NCBI GenBank assembly: GCA_029570835.1 | Contig: JAKPTX010000128.1 | Span: 1 to 11,666, forward strand | DNA length: 11,666 nucleotides | Direction: 5' to 3' | Source: Bacteroidota bacterium | Lineage (GTDB): Bacteria > Bacteroidota > Bacteroidia > Bacteroidales > WCHB1-69 | In this document: one piece after another, positions 113-11,666 of the stretch | Numbering within the stretch: position 1 is the first letter of the stretch | Layout of the letters: each line of letters begins with the position of its first letter | Notes under the pieces: generated by a model | What the model was told of the DNA's origin: nothing | What the model saw: the letters and a program-made list of their open reading frames with translations, nothing else | Databases searched by the model: none | Made by a program: the position numbers and the translations under genes

Positions 113-138
113 TCCACAACTAAATTATTTTCGAATGA

Positions 139-230
139 AACGTTTGGCATTTCGAAGTGGTTTCCTATCAAGTTACAACTACTTTTGATACGAGCTAAAA
201 CGCTCGATAAACCACTGACCGCCAAATGTT
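139..230. repeat. C3, a shorter and diverged third copy of the structured element family (compare 2497-2605 and 3811-3919). Its conserved core is enclosed by its own two-part closing stem, and it sits 36 nt beyond the 3' end of the minus-strand GmrSD-like gene.
   Basis: The core segment tttcctatcaagttaca (161-177) is identical to C1 2527-2543, and accactga (211-218) matches C1 2577-2584 with similar spacing. The outer stem is aacgtttggc (139-148) with gccaaatgtt (221-230), 10 bp with one G-T wobble. The inner stem is agtggtt (155-161) with aaccact (210-216). An internal hairpin is cgagc-taaaac-gctcg (191-206). Confidence 0.4.
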
Positions 231-265
231 TTATATACGATGTTAGAGCCATGTGCATTATTTTC

Positions 266-2038: not shown

Positions 2039-2347
2039 TTATCCAGCTCTTTCACTCAACTTTTTGAATGTTTTATCATATGTTCCTATCCAACTTCCCT
2101 TTTTGAAAATTATAGTAGAACCAGAAGCATTACGAAAGTCGCCAAGTGAAGAAACAGCAGCATCTTTAATTTTTTTGCCTGTTTCGTCATATGTACTATA
2201 CCAACTTCCTTTTACAAAAACGATAAAATCACTACCGATACCACAAAGGTCTCCAACTGATGAAGCTGCAATATCTTTAATTTTCTTACCATTACCGTCA
2301 AAAACTGTGTACCAGCTACCTTTTAATTGAACGTCTGAAATTGCCAT
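2039..2347 (-). CDS. Small protein built from three tandem copies of a roughly 36-aa repeat (KGSW-Y/I-x-x-YD-x-x-GKKI...). It resembles WG/KWG-type beta-repeat proteins, and its function is unknown.
   Basis: The ATG at 2345-2347 was confirmed and the leader is A-rich. The repeat KGSWYTVFDGNGKKIKD / KGSWYSTYDETGKKIKD / KGSWIGTYDKTFKKL is visible in the translation. It is also visible as a 108-bp DNA periodicity. Confidence 0.6.
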   Translation of the reverse strand: MAISDVQLKGSWYTVFDGNGKKIKDIAASSVGDLCGIGSDFIVFVKGSWYSTYDETGKKIKDAAVSSLGDFRNASGSTIIFKKGSWIGTYDKTFKKLSERAG

Positions 2348-2408
2348 ATTATCAATTTTTATTTTTTCGCCTACTCTGATTAGTTTTCGGCTTCCCTAAT
2401 TTAAATTT

Positions 2409-2444: not shown

Positions 2445-2492
2445 GTCTCAAAATCTGTCTGTGTGTCTTTTTTCTTTGCATTGGCTCTAACG
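2445..2492. repeat. TGTC-rich, T-run containing segment (gtatgtcgttgtctcaaaatctgtctgtgtgtcttttttctttgcattggc). It is a direct repeat of the segment at 11604-11660 and directly abuts element C1.
   Basis: By eye, the two segments align as gtatgtcgt / tgtc / tgtc / tgtctttttt / ttgg. The repeat runs in the same orientation about 9.2 kb apart. Confidence 0.4.
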
Positions 2493-2496
2493 GTTG

Positions 2497-2605
2497 ACAA
2501 TATGGCCAGTAAGGGATTGCGGGCGATTTCCTATCAAGTTACACGAGAAGTTGAAGCGGGCTACAACCCTTCGCATACCACTGAAACCCTTATTGGCTAT
2601 ATTGT
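2497..2605. repeat. C1, a 109-nt structured element. A 19-bp closing stem (acaatatggccagtaaggg / cccttattggctatattgt, two G-T wobbles) encloses a 71-nt core conserved with C2. It is a candidate structured ncRNA or structure-specific DNA site.
   Basis: The 5' arm 2497-2515 pairs with the 3' arm 2587-2605. The core shares agtaagggattgcggg, tttcct-tcaa, tacac-gaag, ttga-gcggg and taccactgaaacccttattg with the copy at 3811-3919. The flank aacggttga is shared. Confidence 0.55.
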
Positions 2606-2630
2606 GTGTTGGCGGTTCGTTGTTTCTTTC

Positions 2631-2960
2631 CTAATTCTTTAAGATAAAACTATTTTTCTTATCTGTTAATGAATGTTTTGGGTTTAAAGAACTTTGTATA
2701 TCTGAAATCAATTCATCAATGTTTGAGATTGATTTTCTACGTGCATTATTCCAATCCCAAGTATTGCTATCAATATATTCAGTAATCTCAATTAAATTAT
2801 AATTTGTATTGAAATCATAACTTTTGCACCAGTCATTCCTATAATTATTTATACAAAACAGCCAAAGCATTCCGTCATTCTTAATCATGTAGGATTCGGT
2901 ATTTATACCTGTAAGTCCAAATATCTTAGAAAGTCTATCCTTAATTTCATTTATTTTCAT
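2631..2960 (-). CDS. Hypothetical 109-aa protein, Asn/Trp-rich with no recognisable domain. It is the second gene of a two-gene AT-rich cassette.
   Basis: The ATG at 2958-2960 was confirmed. It lies 18 nt downstream of the 251-aa ORF on the same strand, and the stop lies 10 nt from the outer stem of C1 (25 nt from the C1 3' arm). Confidence 0.5.
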   Translation of the reverse strand: MKINEIKDRLSKIFGLTGINTESYMIKNDGMLWLFCINNYRNDWCKSYDFNTNYNLIEITEYIDSNTWDWNNARRKSISNIDELISDIQSSLNPKHSLTDKKNSFILKN

Positions 2961-2978
2961 AACAATACCTTTTTATTT

Positions 2979-3734
2979 TTAGTTTTTTATCACAGAAATT
3001 ATAGCCTCATGAACCTTATTATTGCTTTCTAGTAATTGAATTAAATTACAAGATGAAAGAGAATTCGTGTCCGAAAAAGAATTGTATCGCCAATATTCAA
3101 ACTGATGACTCATTAGCCACTTTTCGTTCTTAAATATATCCAATAATTCAGATGGTATATTTTCTGAAAATGCAAAAACCTTCAGACTCTCAATAATTTC
3201 ATCACAAATCTTCTTGGGTTTGTCGGAATCATAATCATCAGACTTAGGAACATTATCCTTGTAATGTTTCAATTTTTCGATATTAGATTTTAACAAATCC
3301 ACTAACTTTACAATTGCATCTTTGTCAATACTTGACATAGAATTATCTGTTAAAGAACTCTTTATGTAATCTTTTATTTTGTTCTTGATTGAATCTTGTT
3401 CGTTTCCTGAAATCACTATTTGATAATCAATTGTTTTCTTTGCATCAGATTTTTGAATTAATTTTGAATTATGTCCTCTACGGCAATTATCAAGCGTTTC
3501 ATCTGGATTAAAGAATGAAACATATACCTCTATTGGGCTATCTTGATTACCTGCCCATGATTGTGAGAAGTAATTATCTAATTTTTGAAACAATCCAGTA
3601 ATGCTTTTTGCTTTAATATTATGCTCTATTGCAAAATTAATTACTCTATAATCAGGGAAATCGTAATCCCCCTCAATAAGTTTTGTGGTTACTTCACCAC
3701 CAATCAAATTTAATTCAAATTGTGAGTTTTTCAT
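2979..3734 (-). CDS. Hypothetical 251-aa protein, Lys/Asn/Asp-rich and apparently soluble, with no recognisable motif. It is the first gene of the AT-rich two-gene cassette between elements C2 and C1.
   Basis: The ATG at 3732-3734 was confirmed. The ORF is long and uninterrupted, and element C2 ends 77 nt upstream of it. Confidence 0.55.
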   Translation of the reverse strand: MKNSQFELNLIGGEVTTKLIEGDYDFPDYRVINFAIEHNIKAKSITGLFQKLDNYFSQSWAGNQDSPIEVYVSFFNPDETLDNCRRGHNSKLIQKSDAKKTIDYQIVISGNEQDSIKNKIKDYIKSSLTDNSMSSIDKDAIVKLVDLLKSNIEKLKHYKDNVPKSDDYDSDKPKKICDEIIESLKVFAFSENIPSELLDIFKNEKWLMSHQFEYWRYNSFSDTNSLSSCNLIQLLESNNKVHEAIISVIKN

Positions 3735-3810
3735 TTTAGTACCTTCTATTTTAAAGATTAAACATGAGTTTCCTACTAGTTTCTGGTTTTACAATGACCG
3801 CCAACGGTTG

Positions 3811-3919
3811 AGTGTAGCAGCAGTAAGGGATTGCGGGTTACTTTCCTGTCAAAATACACCGAAGTTTGAGCGGGGCAGAATGCTTGATTTACCACTGAAA
3901 CCCTTATTGCTGCTACACT
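3811..3919. repeat. C2, a 109-nt structured element of identical length to C1. An 18-19 bp closing stem (gtgtagcagcagtaaggg / cccttattgctgctacac) differs in sequence from the C1 stem but preserves pairing.
   Basis: The 5' arm 3812-3829 pairs with the 3' arm 3901-3918, and the pair 3811/3919 extends the stem. There is one G-T wobble at the same position as in C1. The inner stem agtaaggg/cccttatt and the 71-nt core are conserved. Confidence 0.55.
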
Positions 3920-4062
3920 TTGTTACCAACTGGCCTTCTTTCTTGTCAAGCGATACACCTTTTTGTTTATCAACTATTTCTATCATTTCGTTTTGTCTGT
4001 CGGATAGTGTATCAGCAAAGTTTTATTTTTTAAGTGGGATATTTCTTGTTTTTTTCGGGTGG

Positions 4063-4134
4063 GCAAAGCAAGCTCTTTTGCAAACTTTGGTTTGCGGGTT
4101 GGCTTTGAGCGGTTTGCAAATGTGCTTGCTTTGC
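4063..4134. repeat. Long imperfect inverted repeat (gcaaagcaagc-tcttt-tgcaaac ... gtttgca-aatgt-gcttgctttgc). A 26-nt loop between the arms carries ttgcgggtt and tttgagcgg, motifs also found in the C2 core. It lies immediately 3' of the 324-aa gene and is not followed by a U-run on the gene strand.
   Basis: 11 bp plus 7 bp of exact complementarity are separated by a 5-nt mismatch bubble. The 9-mers ttgcgggtt (4091-4099 versus 3831-3839) and tttgagcgg (4104-4112 versus 3865-3873) recur. Confidence 0.4.
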
Positions 4135-4147
4135 GTCCGGGTTCATA

Positions 4148-5122
4148 TTAGTTAAACTTTCCTGTGATTTGTGAAATATCAAATTTGCCGTCAATGTTTT
4201 GAATTTCGATTTTTCCATTCAGAATATCGAAGAAGAAATCGCGAATACGGTCGAAGGTCAAAATGGCGGGCTTTCCGTCTTTTCCAATACCAATATCGTA
4301 AGTTTTCAGCAGTTGTAAACCGAGCGAGGCAGCTGTCAAAAGAAAATGATTTTGAAACTTATCGGTATCCAACAAGTCGGCTGCCAACACTTTACCTATT
4401 ACAGTGTAACTGCGCAACGTTTTCTGAATTTCCTCATTGGTGAGCGTAGTTTTTACCTCATCGGTAGTAATATTCATTTCAATTTTACCTGAATTTTGTG
4501 CCTGTGGAAGTCCTTTGTAAAGTGCGCCCAAGTCAGCCAAACTCAAATTGTAAAGCCTTGCATCGGCGGTAGCAATCATCGGCTCAATTGAAAACGCACT
4601 CGGCAAAAGCAAGGAAATACTGCCTTCTACCCGCACCGACGGCGTGTTGAACGTGCCGACAAGGCTGTTTTTGAGGTCGATTTGCTGCGTAGCAAACACA
4701 CCGCCAACCACTATACTGTTTTCCAACACGACATCATCTGCATAAATGCTGCCCGCCACAAAAGCATTGTAAAGCGCTACACTCTTGGCGTTTATATCGG
4801 AATGGAAAACGAGTTTGGCGTTTTCTGCCCGCGAAACAAGGCTGTTTGCCGAGCCAACGCTCTTTTTGAACGCGATATTGCCTTTTGCCTCGCTGTTGAC
4901 ATAAAGTTCCAATTGCGTGAAAACAGCACCTTGAATTTCGAGGTCGCCGTTTTGGATTTCTAACTTGTGGGCATAAACCGGTCCTTCAACTACCGCATTG
5001 CCCTGCACTGTAATAGTGCGATTGAGTTCCGCGGCCTTTTCGGGCAAAATAGAGCCGCGCACCAGGTTGTCTTTCAATTGTATGTTGCTTTCGTTAAAAC
5101 GAAGTTCTTTTAACTCTTTCAT
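4148..5122 (-). CDS. A 324-aa protein with a bactofilin-like (DUF583-type) beta-helical repeat region at its N-terminus and a distinct C-terminal domain. It is the last gene of the six-gene operon.
   Basis: The ATG at 5120-5122 was confirmed. Residues about 35-175 show the alternating-hydrophobic pattern with Gly/Asn turns (VQGNAVVEGPVYAHKLEIQNGDLEIQGAVF...SIVVGGVFATQQIDL...SVRVEGSISLL), typical of bactofilin beta-helix rungs. Confidence 0.55.
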   Translation of the reverse strand: MKELKELRFNESNIQLKDNLVRGSILPEKAAELNRTITVQGNAVVEGPVYAHKLEIQNGDLEIQGAVFTQLELYVNSEAKGNIAFKKSVGSANSLVSRAENAKLVFHSDINAKSVALYNAFVAGSIYADDVVLENSIVVGGVFATQQIDLKNSLVGTFNTPSVRVEGSISLLLPSAFSIEPMIATADARLYNLSLADLGALYKGLPQAQNSGKIEMNITTDEVKTTLTNEEIQKTLRSYTVIGKVLAADLLDTDKFQNHFLLTAASLGLQLLKTYDIGIGKDGKPAILTFDRIRDFFFDILNGKIEIQNIDGKFDISQITGKFN

Positions 5123-5141
5123 TGTGATATTATTTTTATGA

Positions 5142-6176
5142 TTAAACTGATTTTATTGAGCTGAAATTTAGCATTTTAACAATATTTTCCCGCACACGAT
5201 TTGTGTGTGTATCGCCTGTGGAATAACGATTGCTGACTTCCGCGTTGAAATAACGCCCGATTTTCTCGGCATTGTCTTTGGGAAGGTTTCCCCAAGTTTT
5301 TGCCTGAAAATCAGAAATCATTTCGTTTGCCTGCATTTTTGGCAAAAAATCGGCTTGATACAGATTTTTGTCAATCTGACTTTTTTCGTTTTGCGTTTCG
5401 ATAAAGCAGACAGGCGAATAATGCACGGCTGCAACGCTCTCGTTCAGAACGGTTTGATTGATTGTGTCGTTCAAGCGTTTCTGTTTCACGAGAAAAGTAT
5501 TTGCCTTGCCGATAGTGTCAAACGCGCGTTTTTTGGCAATAGAGGCAGAAAGTCGCACCTGTAAATCGCCGCTCTCCGCGCCAAAAACGGCCACAGTACT
5601 TGCCAAATCGCCTGTCAAGGTGCGTCCTGCATGCTTGTCGCTCTGATTTTTGAAGACGAAAGCAGGCTTGTCCAATTCGTAAATACGGTTGGAAAGTTCG
5701 TTGTCCAAGTCCTCAAAAATTTTCAGGTAACGGCTAGAAATACGCTGATAGTCGCCTTGCATCTGCGTTTGTTTTTCCACACAACGTTTTGCCATTGAGT
5801 GCAGGTGTGCCAAATGGGAATCTAAACGGCTCGAAAGTTCTGCAATCTGCTGGCTGATTTCAGAGCGAATTGTTTTGAAAAAACCTTCTACAATGGTACT
5901 ACCCACTTTCTTTGCGTTGCTGTCGATAGATACAATTTGTGCCGTTTCGGTAGCAACGACTGCACCAGTGAGAACATTTACAGAATTGTTACAATTCGCT
6001 ACACTATTGTCGAAAGGAGTTGTTTCAACATCAATATTTACCTGTACATCTTCGTAAGCCGTACCGCTGTATGGTACACTTCCGCTATATGGTTTTCCAT
6101 CTACAGAACCAGAATAACTGACTCGACCCGAATAGTGAACTGCTATTTGTTTATGAAAACTTTGTCTATAACTCAT
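5142..6176 (-). CDS. Hypothetical 344-aa protein, mainly alpha-helical, a paralogue of the upstream 308-aa protein. It has a Ser/Gly/Tyr-rich N-terminus (YSGRVSYSGSVDGKPYSGSVPYSG).
   Basis: The ATG at 6174-6176 overlaps the TGA stop of the upstream gene (ATGA overlap). It shares GFFKTIRSEISQQIAEL...SSRYLKIF...ELDKP with the 308-aa ORF. Confidence 0.7.
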   Translation of the reverse strand: MSYRQSFHKQIAVHYSGRVSYSGSVDGKPYSGSVPYSGTAYEDVQVNIDVETTPFDNSVANCNNSVNVLTGAVVATETAQIVSIDSNAKKVGSTIVEGFFKTIRSEISQQIAELSSRLDSHLAHLHSMAKRCVEKQTQMQGDYQRISSRYLKIFEDLDNELSNRIYELDKPAFVFKNQSDKHAGRTLTGDLASTVAVFGAESGDLQVRLSASIAKKRAFDTIGKANTFLVKQKRLNDTINQTVLNESVAAVHYSPVCFIETQNEKSQIDKNLYQADFLPKMQANEMISDFQAKTWGNLPKDNAEKIGRYFNAEVSNRYSTGDTHTNRVRENIVKMLNFSSIKSV

Positions 6177-7099
6177 AATTGTTCGTTTTTAAGGGTTTGA
6201 AAATTATTAGCCATAAACAGTTTGTTAGCCATATCTTTTACCCGCTGCGAACTGCCCGAATTAGAAAGATATTTGCTGAACTCGCTTTTTACCTCCTTGT
6301 CGATTTCTTTTGACGGTTGCCACTCAATATTTTCAATATTGGAATTAACCGTGTTTTTAATGGTTGATTGAGTTTGTTTGCTCAACTGTGCATTATTTAA
6401 TTGAATATCAATATTTTTGCTGTCGAATTTATCAAAATTACACTCTAAAATTACCACAGGAACGGACAGGGTAGAATTTTCAACATTGCCTTTTTCAAGC
6501 AAAATTCTGTCAGTCAATTTTTTCTGTTCCGACATATCGGCAAGAAAGTTTGTCATTGAGTTGATAACTCTCAAACCTCGAAATTTTACATTCGAGGCAA
6601 TGATCTTCTGACTTGCCGCCAGCGATTCGAGTTGCGAAACAGGGACGGTTGCCGTCAGGTATTTTGTACGGTTAGATACCTTTTCCAATTCTTTAACTGC
6701 AAAATCGACAGTTGGTTTATCCAATTCAAAAATTCGCTGTTTCAGATTTTGATTCAATCCGTTGAAAAGTTTCAGATAACGAGAGGAAATCATATTATAG
6801 TCGCGTTCCATTCTGCCGCGTATTGCCAAAAGTTGCTTTTTTTGTGCGTTGAGCTGCATTAAATGCGAATCGACATCGCTTTGCAGTTTGGCTATTTTCT
6901 GCGAAATTTGAGAACGTATAAGCGTGTAAAAGCCTTTATTTACGTTGTCGCAAACGTGGTCGGCGGCTTTCTTTTCTGCCAAAACTACGGCAGTTTGCAT
7001 TGCTACAACCGCAGTTGTAGTCCCCTTGATATGATTGGACACTGAATGAATTTCCTGTGCCATCGGGTTGGTATCTACTACGCAATCTATATATGCCAT
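6173..7099 (-). CDS. Hypothetical 308-aa protein, mainly alpha-helical with a coiled-coil, the first of two tandem paralogues.
   Basis: The ATG at 7097-7099 lies 4 nt downstream of the 752-aa gene stop. It shares GFYTLIRSQISQKIAKL...SSRYLKLF...ELDKP with the 344-aa ORF. Confidence 0.7.
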   Translation of the reverse strand: MAYIDCVVDTNPMAQEIHSVSNHIKGTTTAVVAMQTAVVLAEKKAADHVCDNVNKGFYTLIRSQISQKIAKLQSDVDSHLMQLNAQKKQLLAIRGRMERDYNMISSRYLKLFNGLNQNLKQRIFELDKPTVDFAVKELEKVSNRTKYLTATVPVSQLESLAASQKIIASNVKFRGLRVINSMTNFLADMSEQKKLTDRILLEKGNVENSTLSVPVVILECNFDKFDSKNIDIQLNNAQLSKQTQSTIKNTVNSNIENIEWQPSKEIDKEVKSEFSKYLSNSGSSQRVKDMANKLFMANNFQTLKNEQL

Positions 7100-7103
7100 A
7101 ATC

Positions 7104-9362
7104 TTAAATTTTTATTTCGTTATCATTATCAAATTCGCCCTGATTTTCAAGAATATCATCGATTGCCTGCTCGCGATCGAATTCGTCTGCATCGTATTCC
7201 AAACCGAGTTCGTCAAGAATTTGCTGTAAAGACTCATCGTCCAAGTCGTTCAACTCATCTTTGGAATATTGATATTCTTCGGTTTCGTCATCCTCTTCTT
7301 GTTCTTCGTCTTCAGAAACTTCTTCCTCTTCTTCGTTGTCGTCTTCATCCTGTTCTTCGTCTTCAGAAAGTTCATCCTCTTGAATTTCGGAATCGTCTTC
7401 TGTAAGTTCTTCTTCGGAAATTACTGCCTGTTCTACAACAATTTCCTCATCTGCTTGCTCGTCCTCCGCCTCTTCGTTCAGGAGATTCCGACCTTCGTCG
7501 GAATAACCGTCGAATGGAGTTTCTTCTTCGCGTTCTTTCAGGTTTTCCAACGCATTTTTGGCAATAATCGGCAAATTGAGTGCGATATGCTCAAAAGTAA
7601 TGTCTTCTACATTGGGCGTAGGTGGCAATTCCGAAGATTTAGCAAACAGCGGATTAACCAAAGCCAAAGGCTTACGGCGGTCGTTGAGGTCACGTACTTC
7701 ATCGGCGGCAACTGCCACTTCATTGGAATACCCATCGCGAAGTTTTGCATCGTAATATTCGATATGTCCAAATTTATCGGCTTTCTGGTCAATATCTTCT
7801 TTGAGACGTTCCATATAATCTTCAAAATCCGATTGAGTCCGCTTAAATTCGTTTGACTGCATTTCGAATGCAATTAATGTTTCGGCAGCATTATCAACCA
7901 CATCAACAACGGTGCTGTCAAGGTTACCCTCCGACTGTACCATAGTATCTTCGGTGCGTTGCAACGAAACCAAGGTATTATAGGCAGCCACATATTCCTG
8001 CAAACTTTTTCCCATATCTCGAATAATATCAGCGGCTTCGGCACGGTTGCGACCATAAAAATCTTCGCAGTTTTCGTGCCAACGATTCAGATACTCAATT
8101 TTTTGGTCTTTGATATGATTGTAAATTTTAAGGCGTTCAATGCGGTTTTCAGCCATAAGATTTTGAACAACAGGTGTAACGATTTCCTCGTAAATCTGGT
8201 GTACGCCAAAAGGCAAATTGGTTGTGCTGCCATCTTCCGCCGTCCACATTCCCGAAACGAGATTATATTTTACCCGCGAACTCTGTTTGAGTTGGAAAGG
8301 CTCGTATCCCTGCACCGATTCGGTATAATCGAACTTCTCGTTGCGGATACGTTCGATTTCTTCGTGCTCCAAAAGCGGAGAATAGTGATTGTAAGGCGAT
8401 TTGAGAATTTGATACAAAACTTTGTTCGATTCAAAAATTATTTTATCGGTAGAAGCTACCTTCAAGGCAGAAATTGCTTGTACAGAATTTGCCATTGTGA
8501 TCATTAGCCCCTTCAAAACGTCCTCAAACTGTTGTGTTTTGTTCGACAATGAATCTTTTAACCTATTAAGTTCCTGAAATTTATTTACACTACCCGCATA
8601 TTTTTCCTTGTTGAAAACAGGAATAACCGGTGCGTTTTCAGGAATTTCCGTAGTCGCAAATTCATTTAGAAATTGTAGATATTCGCATTTATCGGCAACT
8701 AATGGTAACGATACCGAAGTGGTATCCAAGTCGTCCATACAGTAAGAAATGGTTCGCAGAGAGCGTTCCAATTTGCCGAAATAATCGTGCTGGTTGATTT
8801 CTTGAATAGAAGTAGAATACTCATCTGTTTCAATGGTTTCCGTGTCTTGCGAGGTTTCCACAATCGGAGCTTCCGACGACAAATTTTCAAGGTCAGCGAT
8901 TGTTTCAATGAGCAAATCGTTTTGCCGCGAAAGTTGCAATGTAATTTCCGACTCATTAACCTTGCCTGTGTAATCGACAATGAAACTTTTGTCTTCGTAC
9001 TTGATTTGATCGGCAATGGGAACATAAGCCACGCCCAACTTGCTCACTTTGTAGTCACGGAAAATCTCGCTATGCTGTTTTTTAAATTCGGCAATGCGCA
9101 TGTCTTTGTCCGCAATCTGTTTTCCCAACCCGCTTTTTTTTATGAAATACACAAAGAACAGAATGATTGTGAGAAACCAAACCCACAACTTGGAAATTTC
9201 TGCCTGCAACGCCGTTTTTTCTTCTTCGAGAACGGCAATTTGCTTTTCAATTCGTTCCTCTTCGGCAACGATTTTTTCAGCCGCCTGGCTGTAATAGTTG
9301 AACAATATCTTCGCCTGGTCTTGATAGACATTGTTCGATTCTGGAAAAATTTTACCTGTCAT
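7104..9362 (-). CDS. A 752-aa single-pass membrane protein. It has an N-terminal coiled-coil, one TM helix (LWVWFLTIILFFVYFI), a large central domain and a roughly 130-aa poly-acidic (Asp/Glu-rich) C-terminal tail with internal repeats.
   Basis: The ATG at 9360-9362 was confirmed and the ORF is long and uninterrupted. The tail reads SEDEEQDEDDNEEEEEVSEDEEQEEDDETEE, and the DNA shows a roughly 57-bp repeat at 7288-7382. Confidence 0.75.
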   Translation of the reverse strand: MTGKIFPESNNVYQDQAKILFNYYSQAAEKIVAEEERIEKQIAVLEEEKTALQAEISKLWVWFLTIILFFVYFIKKSGLGKQIADKDMRIAEFKKQHSEIFRDYKVSKLGVAYVPIADQIKYEDKSFIVDYTGKVNESEITLQLSRQNDLLIETIADLENLSSEAPIVETSQDTETIETDEYSTSIQEINQHDYFGKLERSLRTISYCMDDLDTTSVSLPLVADKCEYLQFLNEFATTEIPENAPVIPVFNKEKYAGSVNKFQELNRLKDSLSNKTQQFEDVLKGLMITMANSVQAISALKVASTDKIIFESNKVLYQILKSPYNHYSPLLEHEEIERIRNEKFDYTESVQGYEPFQLKQSSRVKYNLVSGMWTAEDGSTTNLPFGVHQIYEEIVTPVVQNLMAENRIERLKIYNHIKDQKIEYLNRWHENCEDFYGRNRAEAADIIRDMGKSLQEYVAAYNTLVSLQRTEDTMVQSEGNLDSTVVDVVDNAAETLIAFEMQSNEFKRTQSDFEDYMERLKEDIDQKADKFGHIEYYDAKLRDGYSNEVAVAADEVRDLNDRRKPLALVNPLFAKSSELPPTPNVEDITFEHIALNLPIIAKNALENLKEREEETPFDGYSDEGRNLLNEEAEDEQADEEIVVEQAVISEEELTEDDSEIQEDELSEDEEQDEDDNEEEEEVSEDEEQEEDDETEEYQYSKDELNDLDDESLQQILDELGLEYDADEFDREQAIDDILENQGEFDNDNEIKI
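7288..7382. repeat. Imperfect tandem repeat (about 57-bp period) inside the acidic-tail coding region of the 752-aa gene. It is a potential slippage or length-variation site.
   Basis: tcatcctcttcttgttcttcgtcttcagaaacttc (7288-7322) versus tcatcctgttcttcgtcttcagaaagttc (7345-7373). It encodes LSEDEEQDEDD / VSEDEEQEEDD. Confidence 0.5.
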
Positions 9363-9381
9363 GATTTTTATGATTTTAGAT

Positions 9382-10092
9382 TTAGTTTGAATAAATACTC
9401 TTTCTGATTTGATAAATTCTTTCTGCTTTTTTAAGATTGCTACCGATTGCCTCCTCGTTCATCGAATAATTGGAAATTGCAAACGCAATATCGTTGATAA
9501 CACGAATAAATTGCTGTTCCAAACCATGCGCCTCTGCATTTTCGGTTGGTGAAATAAACCGCAAGCTGTCTTCAAGTGTATTTATTTTGCGAATAAAATA
9601 TTCGGGCAAGTTCGGCAAATCGTTCATTTTGTCTTTCAAATCGCGTATTGCCGTTTTCATTTCATTAATACCGTTACGGTTAAATGTTTCCTGCTGATAC
9701 ACTTCCTGAACTTTGTTGCCTGAATGAATAACGGCAATAAAACCAAGCAGTAACAGAAAAAACAGTCCGCAATGAATGATAAACTGCAAAGCAAACGTCC
9801 ATTCGTAAGCAAGGTTTCCAATCAGCATTACAGCAATAGCGGTAATAGCGTAGAGCCAAGTGAAAAACCATCGTAAGCCAAGCGAACCGACTTTTTTACC
9901 CGATTTGTCGTTCAAATCAACCCAAGGAACAAGAATGTCGAGAAAAAGCAGTCCGTAAATGACAGACGAAACCACGATATTTAGCACGAGAATATCGGTT
10001 GCCAAACTGCCGCGAAACAGTAGAAACGCAGCAATAATAATTGCCTCTCCGCCAAGCAGCGCAATAAATGATAATATTTTCTTTGTATCCAT
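9382..10092 (-). CDS. A 236-aa integral membrane protein with four predicted TM helices in the N-terminal roughly 130 aa, followed by a roughly 100-aa soluble helical domain. No recognisable family.
   Basis: The ATG at 10090-10092 was confirmed. Four hydrophobic stretches (ILSFIALLGGEAIIIAAFLLF, LVLNIVVSSVIYGLLFLDILV, WFFTWLYAITAIAVMLIGNLAY, FALQFIIHCGLFFLLLLGFIAVI) are visible in the translation. Confidence 0.7.
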   Translation of the reverse strand: MDTKKILSFIALLGGEAIIIAAFLLFRGSLATDILVLNIVVSSVIYGLLFLDILVPWVDLNDKSGKKVGSLGLRWFFTWLYAITAIAVMLIGNLAYEWTFALQFIIHCGLFFLLLLGFIAVIHSGNKVQEVYQQETFNRNGINEMKTAIRDLKDKMNDLPNLPEYFIRKINTLEDSLRFISPTENAEAHGLEQQFIRVINDIAFAISNYSMNEEAIGSNLKKAERIYQIRKSIYSN

Positions 10093-10115
10093 AATTCGTA
10101 ATTTTTAATTCGTAA

Positions 10116-11381
10116 TTATCTCTTATTTCCACATTTTGGGCAAAATTTCACACTCGGAGGTAATGTTGTTCCGCAACGGCTACAACTGTCGCCGGAAGAA
10201 ACCTGTTTTCCGCAGTTTCCGCAGAAAGTTGCCCCAGCCACCATTGGAGCGTTGCAATGCGGACAGTTTCCGCCACCCGATTGTAACGGTGTTCCGCAAC
10301 TTACGCAACGTTTGGCGTTTTTATCATTGTCCGTTCCGCATTTTGGGCAAGGGTTGTATTCATCGCCACAATGCGGGCAAAATCGGGTTGTGCTGGGGAA
10401 CTTTTTGGCGCAGTTGGAACAATACACCATTTTAACCTGTTGTTGCTGCTCTTGATTAAAATTGCCGCCTTGCTGATTATTGCCGCCAAAATTAGGCTGA
10501 TTGAATTGTGGCTGCATCATTCCGCCACCAACAGCGCCGCTGCCACCCATTCCACCCATCATATTCATTGCCATCAGACCGCCAATAAGTCCGCCGTTGC
10601 CATTTCCAAAACCATCAACAGCATTGTTAGCGGTATTGAACATTTGTTCTTGTTGCCAAGTGTGCCCTGTAATTGACATCGACGCTTGCGTTGCAATGGC
10701 TTCCGCTACCTTTCTGCCTTCTTCTGTGGATTTATCAATATCAATCGTTGTAATATTAAATTGCAACAATTCCAAACCCAAGTTGTCCCAAAATGGATTT
10801 AGAACACCTTTTAAATATTCAGACAATTCGTCCAAATAAGCGGATAAATACTTAAAACCGACACGGTGTTTAATCACATATTGAGCAATTTGCGACTTGG
10901 TTTTTGTAGAAAATTCTCCGAAAAACTGATTAGTCAAATCATCCTGCGAAAATTCGGTTTTCGTGCCTACAGATTTTATCAGGAATTTTTCCGCATCATT
11001 GACTTTCAAACCATAACGCCCGCCTGCTACAAGCGGCAGTTGCGTATTGTAATCGGGGTCGTGTATCGGCATTTTGCTTACCGCCCAATCAATGCTGAAC
11101 GTTTGAATTTTGTTTACAAACCACACCTCCGCCGTAAACGGATTTTTCCCACCGAAAGGTATTCCGAACAGCGATCGCAAAATCGGCAAGTTTTCGGTGT
11201 TTAAGGTGTGTTTCCCCGGACCGAATTTACCTACAACCTGCCCTTTTGAGAACAATACCGCTTCTTGTGATTCCTGCACAACGAGTTGCGTGTAGGTACT
11301 CAAATTAGTTTCGGGGAAACGCCAAGCGTAAATGGTTTTACTCCCCTGCGGCGACCATCTGACTAAATCAATTATTGCCAT
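10116..11381 (-). CDS. SPFH/Band-7-like domain protein (YdjI / PF13421-type N-terminal domain) fused through a Gly/Met/Gln/Asn-rich low-complexity linker to four C-terminal zinc ribbons (8 CxxC pairs). It is the first gene of the operon.
   Basis: The ATG at 11379-11381 was confirmed. The N-terminus IIDLVRWSPQGSKTIYAWRFP...LVVQESQEAVLFSKGQVVGKFGPGKHTL...AEVWFVN matches the SPFH Band_7_1 family signature as I recall it. The C-terminus reads CSNC..CPHC, CPKC..CVSC, CPHC..CGNC, CSRC..CPKC. Confidence 0.75.
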   Translation of the reverse strand: MAIIDLVRWSPQGSKTIYAWRFPETNLSTYTQLVVQESQEAVLFSKGQVVGKFGPGKHTLNTENLPILRSLFGIPFGGKNPFTAEVWFVNKIQTFSIDWAVSKMPIHDPDYNTQLPLVAGGRYGLKVNDAEKFLIKSVGTKTEFSQDDLTNQFFGEFSTKTKSQIAQYVIKHRVGFKYLSAYLDELSEYLKGVLNPFWDNLGLELLQFNITTIDIDKSTEEGRKVAEAIATQASMSITGHTWQQEQMFNTANNAVDGFGNGNGGLIGGLMAMNMMGGMGGSGAVGGGMMQPQFNQPNFGGNNQQGGNFNQEQQQQVKMVYCSNCAKKFPSTTRFCPHCGDEYNPCPKCGTDNDKNAKRCVSCGTPLQSGGGNCPHCNAPMVAGATFCGNCGKQVSSGDSCSRCGTTLPPSVKFCPKCGNKR

Positions 11382-11500
11382 ATCTTTTTGATTTTAAAGT
11401 TTGTATTTATAAATTTACTCTTTTCGTGCGAAGGGAAAAATGGCTCTTTGACTTTTGCGAAGCGTTGACTTGTGTGTTGGGCAAAAGGTAATGTGCCATT
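11382..11500 (-). promoter_or_regulatory. Leader and promoter region of the six-gene operon. It has no Shine-Dalgarno sequence. A palindromic TAAATTTA (11410-11417) is a weak -7-like candidate. Direct repeats TTGACTT (11448-11454 and 11465-11471) and GCGAAG (11428-11433 and 11457-11462) are candidate regulator sites.
   Basis: The repeats were read directly from the sequence. No canonical TAnnTTTG or TTTG pair at correct spacing was found, so the exact promoter is unresolved. Confidence 0.3.
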
Positions 11501-11603
11501 TTCGTGGTGGTTTCTAAAAACAAAAAAAGCGGGTCGGTAAAAAATAAAACTTTATCGGGACGGCTGGTGTAGTAGGCAGTCATTCCGATTTGATTTTCTT
11601 CTT

Positions 11604-11660
11604 TGTCTTTGTATGTCGTCTTGTCAATTTTCATGTCGCTGTCTTTTTTTTAGGCTTGTT
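11604..11660. repeat. TGTC-rich, T-run containing segment (gtatgtcgtcttgtcaattttcatgtcgctgtcttttttttaggcttgttggtaac). It is a direct repeat of the segment at 2445-2492.
   Basis: The 9-mer gtatgtcgt is shared exactly. Four tgtc motifs are shared in register, as are tgtctttttt and the terminal ttgg...taac. In the other copy this segment is followed immediately by element C1. Confidence 0.4.
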
Positions 11661-11666
11661 GGTAAC

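Follow-up and report, generated by a model that had tools for sequence, protein, structure and literature searches.

A six-gene operon of membrane-attached structural proteins from Bacteroidota, carried as an integron-type cassette

SPFH proteins are expected to assemble as oligomeric rings or cages, and in the SPFH-NfeD cages (HflK/C-FtsH, QmcA-YbbJ) the SPFH protein is encoded with membrane partners. The usual integron cassette is about 1 kb long (~0.5-1.5 kb) and holds one promoterless ORF. In the pspA-ydjGHI operon of Bacillus subtilis, YdjI is soluble and is built from an SPFH domain (Band_7_1), a linker of low complexity and one or more zinc ribbons at the C terminus; it depends on the membrane partners YdjG and YdjH and recruits PspA (PMC8581546, PMC11237479). 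A 4-kb integron cassette was reported to be mobilized poorly or not at all (bioRxiv 10.64898/2026.03.17.712381), complete Bacteroidota genomes to be almost entirely without integrons (PMC9024848), and phage defence to occur among integron cassette products (bioRxiv 10.1101/2024.07.02.601719; PMC12614218).

We analysed a window of 11,666 nucleotides (the whole stretch of DNA studied here) from a Bacteroidota bacterium, near-identical over the region to Bacteroidales bacterium CF. It contains a self-contained six-gene operon that is a Bacteroidota-wide unit, here carried as one 7.86-kb integron-type cassette that has been re-inserted at several attC sites (probability about 0.85-0.9). The genes, with their ORF coordinates, are as follows.

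10116-11381, minus strand: A, 421 aa
9382-10092, minus strand: B, 236 aa
7104-9362, minus strand: C, 752 aa
6173-7099, minus strand: D, 308 aa
5142-6176, minus strand: E, 344 aa
4148-5122, minus strand: F, 324 aa

Recomputed ORF coordinates agreed with the initial annotation, which had described a co-directional block with the layout of one operon; the gaps from A to F are 23, 19, 4, -4 (ATGA overlap) and 19 nt. Among 80 genome loci from five Bacteroidota orders (Bacteroidales, Flavobacteriales, Chitinophagales, Sphingobacteriales and a 'Cytophagaceae' MAG), 62 carry A to F complete and in this order; the median intergenic gaps are 5.5-23 nt. A is missing from three loci, of which two have no B either. 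Comparison of the flanks of the genome loci revealed no conserved gene beyond A-F. The six-gene block is far from a chance arrangement. The initial annotation had held that an absence of co-occurrence outside the source strain would speak against it; the genes do co-occur in other genomes, and this check leaves the proposal standing. The module was detected in 136 of 185,579 species representatives, patchily across orders and at no fixed chromosomal position. Its distribution is sporadic and horizontally transferred, with recent transfer between families, as C is 100% identical in a Prolixibacteraceae MAG.

A is the sole protein of the six with a family assignment. It matched Pfam Band_7_1 (E=2e-34, residues 20-220; the classical Band_7 was weaker, 5e-07), followed by a Gly/Met/Gln-rich linker and four C-terminal zinc ribbons; these correspond to four stretches of match to DZR (double zinc ribbon, 2e-27) and can be read directly as four CxxC...CxxC units. 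No hydrophobic segment was found in A by hydropathy, and by its sequence A is a soluble SPFH protein of the YdjI type. B, the least conserved component (26-67% identity), has four hydrophobic segments by hydropathy and a C-terminal domain of ~110 aa (128-236); its charge distribution suggests an inner-membrane protein with an N-in/C-in topology and a cytosolic C-terminal domain. C consists of an N-terminal helix, a single hydrophobic segment (residues 58-76), a conserved ~530-aa region of alpha/beta structure plus long helices, and a variable poly-acidic tail (610-752), which carries a charge of -66 out of a net -102. The topology of C is ambiguous: by the positive-inside charges its large domain is cytoplasmic, but Cys-rich N-terminal extensions occur in some homologues.

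E is a paralogue of D (32% identity, E=9e-33); its start overlaps the D stop (ATGA), and it carries an extra ~45 aa at its N terminus. C and D were modelled as monomers with AF2, at moderate confidence (pLDDT 71-76, pTM 0.27-0.36); the models predicted many 70-90-residue helices in C and, in D, a helix at 11-147 (137 residues), a helix at 157-201 and a small alpha/beta C-terminal domain. In a structure search both models resembled generic coiled coils only, and no specific fold match was found for D. F, the most conserved component (60-86% identity across orders), has a bactofilin-like beta-helix (~35-175) followed by a highly conserved C-terminal domain of ~150 aa. The Pfam Bactofilin profile (98 positions) is matched over its positions 6-89 by residues 60-152 (8e-05; 23.3 bits, below the cut-off of 27.9), and 22 of the 33 F family members, i.e. 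two thirds, gave such a sub-threshold match (best 8e-05). The label 'bactofilin-like' in the initial annotation is, thus, plausible given its recurrence but not proven, as all matches lie below the gathering score; unlike bactofilins (PF04519), F has a longer repeat region and the additional C-terminal domain. The rest of the gene content was as that annotation had described it, judged by Pfam, hydropathy and the paralogue comparison.

Searches of Pfam, NCBIfam, PADLOC, PHROGs and PDB gave no match for B, C or D/E, apart from one chance-level sub-threshold Pfam match of C (PAH_ZNF598, 15.5 bits against a cut-off of 25); no Pfam domain was present among the 120 listed of 1,409 relatives of D. 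With all six proteins, NCBIfam and PHROGs returned only sub-threshold zinc-ribbon and chance-level matches, and the 5,027 models of PADLOC-DB 2.0 returned none at E<=0.1. The neighbouring GmrSD-type gene matched 26 PADLOC models (best HEC-06, 1.7e-39). The searches recovered no domain of the nuclease, protease, NTPase or NADase kind from A-F. Both negative statements made earlier, that the operon is no recognizable defence, secretion or stress system and that it has no evident enzymatic effector, therefore hold against these databases, although strongly conserved parts of C that match no family (e.g. the YNHYSP motif), or F in its C-terminal domain, may hold a catalytic site. The operon is a tightly conserved Bacteroidota module of structural, membrane-attached proteins.

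The initial annotation had also offered a PspA-ydjGHI-like envelope-stress module, of which only the architecture of A stands. Like YdjI, A is encoded alongside integral membrane proteins, to which it could be anchored. However, the operon lacks PspA/IM30 (ESCRT-III), the TPM-domain YdjH and the NTF2-like (ZnR-NTF2-TM) YdjG, and the model of D is not an ESCRT-III hairpin; pspA-ydjGHI, in turn, has no counterpart of B, C, D, E or the C-terminal domain of F. Since there is no PspA/ESCRT-III partner, the analogy to YdjI covers one of the six proteins. The operon shares with SPFH-NfeD cages an SPFH protein encoded with membrane partners, but A, of the Band_7_1 subfamily, has no TM segment or hairpin, Pfam detected no NfeD in the operon, and a client protease is missing.

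Of the six components, a distant variant of the operon has only C, a single D/E copy and a beta-helix like that of F (profile positions 10-178 or 10-195, E=1e-30 to 1e-37). Because only these persist, the evolutionary core, as read from sequence, is C + D/E + F, in contrast to pspA-ydjGHI; the SPFH protein is missing in the variant as well as in some loci. The variant adds an AAA+ ATPase of the SpoVK/EccA type and membrane zinc-ribbon proteins, those of the YdjG/TcaA type recurring in its operon. At least two accessory sets can accompany the core as alternatives: A and B form one, the ATPase and the membrane zinc-ribbon proteins another.

The 'structured elements' beside the operon are attC recombination sites, which had been overlooked in the initial annotation. 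The features of the cassette and the two other attC sites are as follows.

3805-11665, minus strand: whole mobile cassette (7,861 bp), with leader, the six genes, a terminator-like hairpin and attC
11382-11665, minus strand: 5' leader of the cassette, preceding A
11437-11502, minus strand: leader inverted repeat I14 (AAATGGC..TTTTGC, 22 nt, GCAAAA..GCCATTT)
4063-4134, minus strand: hairpin with a 23-bp stem (inverted repeat I3, 91% complementary), directly after the F stop codon
3799-3929, minus strand: the cassette's own attC, with R'' TTGGTAAC (3929-3922), L''/L' stem and R' (G 3805, TT 3804-3803)
2474-2626, minus strand: attC of the next cassette (covariance model 147.7 bits), R'' CCGCCAAC complementing the start GTTGGCGG
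116-260, minus strand: attC of the third cassette (covariance model 103 bits), R'' GGCTCTAAC complementing the start GTTAGAGCC

The cassette begins with TTACCAAC and finishes with ...CAACCG; the right end of the window (11666) is the G of the upstream GTT. It is >99.5% identical in loci L001-L011, where it occurs in eight arrangements whose flanks differ on both sides. These arrangements comprise six different left and seven different right junctions with breakpoints at G|TT: all left junctions are at |(G)TTACCAAC; of the right junctions, the six whose attC is intact are at ...CAACCG|TT, while in L009, which has a hybrid attC, divergence begins earlier. The same G|TT junctions are seen in a finished genome (CP006772, L011).

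The R'' box of the cassette attC, TTGGTAAC, is the exact complement of G plus the first 7 bases of the cassette (GTTACCAA). The same relation between R'' and the 5' end holds for the other two cassettes of the window and for three further cassettes in L003 and L006 (GTTGGGCGC/GCGCCCAAC, GTTATAGGGC/GCCCTATAAC and GTTAGCAGTT/AACTGCTAAC), a complementarity for which recombination of circular cassettes is the only explanation. The DNA fold z-scores of the cassette attC were -3.1 and -3.6, and compensatory changes were found at 15 of 16 stem pairs predicted by RNAalifold from 14 aligned sites. A covariance model matched all three attC sites of the window with 103-149 bits, that of the cassette at 3788-3940 with 149 bits. 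Beyond the operon, the next cassette (2491-3804) has ORFs of 251 and 109 aa, and the third (~125-2490) encodes a 102-aa repeat protein and GmrSD. The GmrSD-type gene (266-1993) indeed lies, as noted before, in AT-richer DNA downstream (GC 0.28-0.35, versus 0.36-0.48 in the operon). Other cassettes of these arrays encode MerB, glyoxalase, beta-lactamase-like, esterase and radical-SAM proteins.

These arrays share with integron cassettes and CALIN arrays the R''-L''...L'-R' imperfect palindrome with unpaired bases, the G|TT crossover, the 5' end complementary to its own R'', co-oriented cassettes and a cargo mixing defence, detoxification and unknown genes. They differ in their long attC sites (~125-150 nt) with a conserved common central region, and the present cassette differs in its size of 7.86 kb, its six genes and, probably, its own promoter.

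As to function, we tentatively propose, at somewhat below even odds, a non-enzymatic supramolecular scaffold under the inner membrane that protects or organizes the envelope and spreads as an accessory cassette. The six products would assemble on the cytoplasmic face of the inner membrane, fastened to it by B (four TM segments) and the one hydrophobic anchor of C. A would oligomerize at the membrane, relying on membrane partners by analogy with YdjI, with its four zinc ribbons as docking modules; D and E would join as a long heteromeric coiled coil, F would polymerize via its beta-helix, and the acidic tail of C would serve as a flexible tether or recruiting arm. When phage, toxins or antimicrobials damage the envelope, such an assembly might stabilize the membrane, partition it or repair it. 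If so, the operon would be an accessory envelope-protection trait, useful only in some niches, and a niche-limited benefit fits the sporadic, horizontally transferred distribution. The defence and detoxification genes among the array cargo indicate 'accessory' and do not single out 'envelope'.

The main rival, which we regard as possible though rather unlikely, is a new defence against phages or mobile elements, non-enzymatic or membrane-acting: abortive infection could proceed through B as a pore or effector that the SPFH scaffold restrains, or DNA entry could be blocked at the membrane. The array studied here includes GmrSD, that of L002 a type I R-M system and an AAA_13/SMC-like ATPase, and those of L003 and L010 a GmrSD_N protein, while the next cassette in L047 encodes an Mrr-helicase protein; phage-defence genes are among those reported on integron cassettes (bioRxiv 10.1101/2024.07.02.601719; PMC12614218). 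The sporadic distribution, the recent transfer between families witnessed by the identical C, and a self-contained module apparently with its own promoter would also suit defence. The operon is, by functional analogy only, reminiscent of Zorya and Kiwa, being multi-gene, membrane-anchored, coiled-coil-rich and sporadic, with restriction genes adjacent in this array, but it has no sequence or profile similarity to them (PADLOC) and no MotAB-like stator, nuclease/helicase effector or DUF4868. The empty PADLOC search and the lack of nuclease, protease, NTPase or NADase domains in A-F argue against defence, as does the conservation of F and C (60-86%), which by our expectation is unusually high for defence genes. 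The earlier argument from a defence island applies to this cassette array but not to other genomes: among 110 immediate neighbours elsewhere, the families matched by at least two neighbours are almost all housekeeping, and the matches listed for them include few PADLOC model names (at least 12 or so), most from single neighbours. Moreover, the MerB, glyoxalase, beta-lactamase-like, esterase and radical-SAM cassettes are a mixed cargo, which makes the array context generically accessory.

An improbable reading is that the module is a constitutive cytoskeletal or membrane-domain organizer for an ordinary cell task (giving an envelope machine its shape or position, or organizing a membrane microdomain), rather than a stress or conflict module. 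Its identifiable parts (SPFH, bactofilin-like beta-helix, coiled coils) all belong to polymer or scaffold classes, it is under strong purifying selection, and in most genomes its neighbours are housekeeping genes. For a core function, however, one would expect vertical inheritance and synteny, and the module was detected in only 136 of the 185,579 species representatives, patchy across orders, without fixed position or conserved neighbour, and borne on a mobile cassette exchanged between families.

The cassette boundaries persist in more distant copies. In L037, L039, L042, L043, L047 and L050, whose proteins are only ~65% identical, DNA-level conservation is seen at the 5' boundary (G|TTAC(C/A)A(A/G)CAAGCC) and in the final ~110 nt of the leader, and an attC of the same type follows F by ~215 bp in L037, L039, L042 and L047. 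A complete integron platform has an integrase IntI with an IntI-specific extra domain beside its array, together with attI and Pc. The flanks of the present arrays showed no canonical IntI; the array head of L006 and L011 instead carries a tyrosine recombinase that is Xer/IntI-like but shorter, along with an IS91-family transposase. This recombinase scored 160.5 bits on TIGR02249 (cut-off 265) and was 28% identical to IntI1 in an alignment in which the insertion region is gapped and the IntI-specific extra domain is absent. The array may be a CALIN served in trans. That no integron-type recombination took place, the arrays reflecting mis-assembly or homologous recombination at a hotspot and the 'attC' being ordinary terminators or repeats, is very improbable: although most contexts are short-read metagenome contigs, the recombinase is no canonical IntI and 4-kb cassettes were reported to move poorly or not at all (bioRxiv 10.64898/2026.03.17.712381), the contexts come from different samples and one finished genome, the junctions lie at one G|TT (save the hybrid attC of L009), different cassette ends share ~5 nt there, too short for a de Bruijn chimera, every R'' box complements its own cassette's first bases, the attC stem covaries, and the boundaries are retained in copies ~35% diverged at the protein level.

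The integron-type cassette probably has its own promoter in the leader, where TAAATTTA, ~30 nt upstream of the ATG, may by our reading be a -7 box of the Bacteroidetes type. A 75-codon leader ORF (11407-11634) is probably not a gene; in L039, L043 and L047 neither its start nor its 5' half is conserved. The leader inverted repeat is conserved but present only in the cassette-borne clade. Among 8 sequences it showed no compensatory changes; it could act as an operator or form a hairpin in the RNA. The 23-bp hairpin after F is likely the operon terminator.

Scanning the window for open reading frames placed all six minus-strand genes exactly where the initial annotation had put them, with the same intergenic gaps of 23, 19, 4, −4 and 19 nt from A to F, the letters following transcription order:

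10116-11381, minus strand, A, 421 aa
9382-10092, minus strand, B, 236 aa
7104-9362, minus strand, C, 752 aa
6173-7099, minus strand, D, 308 aa
5142-6176, minus strand, E, 344 aa
4148-5122, minus strand, F, 324 aa

The earlier description of the proteins also proved correct in all but one respect, as the ORF scan, Pfam, charge and paralogy results agree. A is an SPFH protein (Band_7_1, E=2e-34) with four zinc ribbons (DZR in four stretches), B has the four hydrophobic segments of a 4-TM protein, and C has the one of a single-pass protein (residues 58-76), together with an overall charge of −102 and a poly-acidic tail of charge −66. D and E are paralogues (32% identity, E=9e-33). The exception is F, described as bactofilin-like; its Pfam Bactofilin match is below threshold (23.3 bits versus 27.9) and leaves that assignment unproven, while recurring in 22 of the 33 F family members. 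Downstream, the GmrSD-type gene is present at 266-1993, and the cargo there is indeed AT-rich (GC 0.28-0.35 versus 0.36-0.48 in the operon). The six proteins are conserved, co-transcribed by their layout, partly membrane-anchored and rich in coiled coil and beta-helix, and no catalytic domain is detectable in any of them, in line with the initial remark that no enzymatic effector is evident in the operon.

Nor could we attach a named system or family to the operon. PADLOC gave zero matches for A-F, and scans of all six proteins against NCBIfam and PHROGs returned zinc ribbons at most. Searches of PDB sequences with the single proteins and with the D/E, F and C family profiles gave no meaningful match. 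The D search found 1,409 relatives, annotated as hypothetical and with no Pfam domain among the matches listed, and a profile of D and E together reached at least 1,847 (90%-identity cluster representatives). The C family is small, with 323 representatives among 1.84 billion. In two divergent C homologues, P0258 (777-834) and P0246 (706-773), the last part is a ribosomal L7/L12 C-terminal domain (Pfam 1e-17), at the place where the window's C has the end of its acidic tail; this hints that the tail end of C may recruit a partner, possibly translational GTPases. Other C homologues have N-terminal Cys-rich or zinc-ribbon extensions.

Among 185,579 species-representative genomes scanned, 136 matched, and 80 loci were kept from these; one is in CP006772, the finished Bacteroidales bacterium CF genome, whose D is 100% identical. 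The six genes co-occur well outside this strain: tblastn with the six proteins found the order A-B-C-D-E-F on every sufficiently long contig, and the full set is present in 62 of the 80 loci, where the median gaps are 5.5-23 nt. Among the hosts are Bacteroidales, Flavobacteriales, Chitinophagales, Sphingobacteriales and one 'Cytophagaceae' MAG; the operon defines a widespread yet unnamed protein system. Identity to the window protein is 60-86% for F, 60-85% for C (first ~610 aa), 52-88% for A, 48-86% for D, 36-79% for E and 26-67% for B. A is absent from three loci (L027, L053 and L057), and B too from two of them. All-against-all clustering of 550 flanking ORFs yielded none common to more than six loci, and we rejected a conserved seventh gene.

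Through relatives of the most divergent C homologue we reached a distant variant of the operon in three loci (L091, 9213-15904; L092, 7617-15974; L094, 7689-17925). Its first gene encodes, in two of the three, a TPR protein with two SpoVK/EccA/CbbX-type AAA+ modules. Next come a C-like protein (565-603 aa), a single D/E-like protein (E=1e-9 to 1e-14) and an F-like protein, whose beta-helix matches F profile positions 10-178 or 10-195 at E=1e-30 to 1e-37 and which carries a zinc ribbon at its C-terminus. They are followed by several proteins with N-terminal zinc ribbons, one of which has a weak TcaA-like match that is far sub-threshold (18.7 bits versus a cut-off of 550). Neither an SPFH protein nor B was found in these three loci. 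Since the variant keeps C-, D/E- and F-like proteins without SPFH or B, we take C, D/E and F as the core, around which SPFH plus B and AAA+ are alternative accessory sets; zinc ribbons are the constant theme of both operons. If this holds, the alternation of an SPFH and 4-TM set with an AAA+ ATPase and zinc-ribbon set would offer a way to test how SPFH scaffolds couple to their client assemblies. The core families have no Pfam, PDB or defence-database relatives, which would make the operon a clean target in the search for new membrane or cytoskeletal biology in Bacteroidota, which are central to the ecosystems of guts and digesters.

The exact D protein is present on many metagenome contigs. 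By blastn, window ~3800-11666 was >99.5% identical in L001-L011 (the last being CP006772), with unrelated DNA on either side, and its left boundary coincides exactly with the right end of the window. Every left junction lies at |(G)TTACCAACAAG, and right junctions with an intact attC at ...CAACCG|TT. Together they make up eight arrangements, with six left and seven right contexts, one arrangement being in the finished genome. The right junction of L009 diverges before ...CAACCG|TT; the operon attC there (8228-8381) is a hybrid, with the usual 5′ arm and a 3′ arm from another site, and the arms no longer pair. The segment ends at its 3′ side in a ~130-nt imperfect palindrome, of which the window has two further copies. 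A covariance model, built from a 14-site attC alignment with a 16-pair stem and compensatory changes at 15 pairs, scored 103-149 bits at three window sites, the structured elements of the initial annotation:

3788-3940, minus strand, attC-type site
2474-2626, minus strand, attC-type site
116-260, minus strand, attC-type site

The window thus divides into three cassettes:

11665-3805, minus strand, cassette 1, the six-gene operon
3804-2491, minus strand, cassette 2, ORFs of 251 and 109 aa
2490 to about 125, minus strand, cassette 3, a 102-aa repeat protein and GmrSD

In each of them, G together with the cassette's own first bases is exactly complementary to the R″ box (R″ and start: GTTACCAA and TTGGTAAC; GTTGGCGG and CCGCCAAC; GTTAGAGCC and GGCTCTAAC), and this holds too for three more cassettes in L003 and L006. 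Such complementarity is the hallmark of cassettes that circularise and are re-inserted through recombination at attC. An excised 7.86-kb circle would join the cassette ends as ...CAACCG|TTACCAAC....

The same model found an attC-type site ~215 bp after F in L047, L039, L042 and L037, and four additional ones in L037. The operon proteins of these loci are ~65% identical to those of the window, and the 5′ boundary G|TTAC(C/A)A(A/G)CAAGCC is retained; the persistence of site and boundary at this distance indicates that the operon has long been carried as a cassette. Directly upstream of the cassette start, L037 also repeats ~180 nt of the cassette's 3′ tail (5400-5620), ending R″(CAGCTTGTAAC)-ATGC-R′(GTTACAAGC), which looks like a circle junction or tandem remnant with the attC arms deleted. 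Identity to the window is mosaic in L012, a Prolixibacteraceae MAG (C 100%, A 98%, F 95%, D 93%, E 91%, B 89%), and in L011 (A 98%, B 89%, C-F 99-100%), and points to recent transfer between families and to recombination within the cassette.

The operon unit behaved as an integron cassette in three structural tests; it differs from one in its size, its content and the lack of an adjacent canonical IntI. No canonical IntI was seen at the array head, where the recombinases scored 160 bits on the integron-integrase model against a cut-off of 265. At the array head of L006 (799-3096) and L011 (472-2043), a Xer/IntI-like tyrosine recombinase of 300-305 aa and an IS91-family Y2 transposase form a pair on the opposite strand, head-to-head with the cassettes; after the pair come a small hairpin, TTTAGTTCAAC and a complete attC. 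The two recombinases share 78% protein identity, the two instances are not alignable by default blastn (megablast), and alignment to IntI1 revealed no IntI-specific insertion in either. That the integrase and transposase form a cassette of their own was rejected, as we found no matching cassette start. A tyrosine recombinase also lies directly upstream of the cassette in L042.

The default aggregation distance of IntegronFinder is 4 kb, and a cassette of 7.9 kb exceeds it, so large cassettes are probably missed systematically. IntegronFinder 2.0 gave one complete integron only in Bacteroidetes, in Salinibacter ruber (PMC9024848); the cassette thus occurs in a phylum where integrons are reported to be nearly absent. 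In a recent preprint, cassette recovery dropped with size, and a 4-kb cassette was not recovered (bioRxiv 10.64898/2026.03.17.712381). The operon is a natural example of a six-gene integron-type cassette of about twice the size at which mobility reportedly ends, and its occurrence at 7.86 kb in eight arrangements is outside reported integron experience. L047 has a second very large attC-to-attC interval (13347-20171, 6.8 kb), which holds two ORFs without assignment and encodes a 1,650-aa protein that combines an Mrr nuclease and a ResIII helicase with 13 HA domains; giant cassettes may therefore be general in these arrays. Cargo elsewhere in the arrays is mixed, being of defence type (type I R-M with an AAA_13/SMC-like ATPase, a GmrSD_N protein and this Mrr-helicase protein), of detoxification or resistance type (MerB, a glyoxalase, a beta-lactamase-family protein, an esterase) or neither (a radical-SAM enzyme).

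We rated the operon a gene system outside every known kind. The best-studied relative of A is B. subtilis YdjI, a soluble SPFH protein bearing a zinc finger at its C-terminus; it recruits PspA and depends on the membrane proteins YdjG and YdjH (PMC8581546). Band-7 proteins whose C-terminus carries zinc ribbons have been interpreted as chaperone-like factors that assemble membrane-linked complexes (PMC11237479). In its working the operon comes closest to a YdjI-type SPFH module, but it does not qualify as the proposed PspA-ydjGHI-like module, as the PspA, TPM and NTF2 partners are missing. From these precedents we infer that the six proteins assemble into a sub-membrane scaffold, and we tentatively favour, with a probability of about 0.4, one that protects or organises the membrane under attack. 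B and C would be the membrane anchors, on which A would oligomerise and dock via its zinc ribbons; D and E would form a heteromeric coiled coil, F would polymerise, and the acidic tail of C would recruit or tether a partner, the whole assembly protecting or organising the membrane.

The main rival, a new kind of anti-phage system, is somewhat unlikely. The cassette array does carry defence cargo, and integron-borne defence has been described (bioRxiv 10.1101/2024.07.02.601719; PMC12614218). However, the operon has no effector domain, the array cargo is mixed, and neighbours in other genomes are mostly housekeeping. A general association with defence islands found no support in 110 immediate neighbours. 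The operon also falls outside the known defence systems, and in the full-text literature we found no paper mentioning SPFH together with bactofilin and defence, and neither an SPFH anti-phage system nor this gene set described. A constitutive cell-biological role would suit the classes of protein present, yet it does not match a distribution that is sporadic and mobile, and we consider it improbable. An assembly artefact, which would leave the R″-to-start complementarity unexplained, is very improbable.

The scaffold reading can be joined to the vehicle, and we hold this combination to be unlikely: a Bacteroidota integron-like platform with a long conserved attC, possibly served by the short IntI-like recombinase with its IS91-family transposase, would move 7-8-kb cassettes, and one of them would carry a new enzyme-free membrane-cytoskeletal machine, with C, D/E and F as its core, that shields the envelope from phage or other attack. 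If true, this would be both a new class of immunity or envelope defence and a new class of vehicle.

In cassette 3, the 102-aa ORF (2039-2347, minus strand) is built from three tandem repeats of ~37 aa each (DNA period 111 nt) with the motif KGSWY..YD..GKKIKD and no family match. Just upstream of it (2368-2400, minus strand) is a near-threshold match to the Rfam DUF805b RNA motif (33.1 bits versus a gathering score of 35.6, E=3e-06). In the leader of the operon cassette, a 75-aa upstream ORF is probably not a gene, as conservation is at the DNA level and the ORF start is not retained, and the leader was rejected as a known RNA, having given no Rfam match and no covariation. A conserved inverted repeat (11437-11502, minus strand) occurs there only in the cassette-borne clade and, given the lack of covariation, may act either as an operator for a protein or as an RNA hairpin. 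In non-cassette loci, ordinary Bacteroidetes −7 boxes (TAnnTTTG) lie upstream of A instead.
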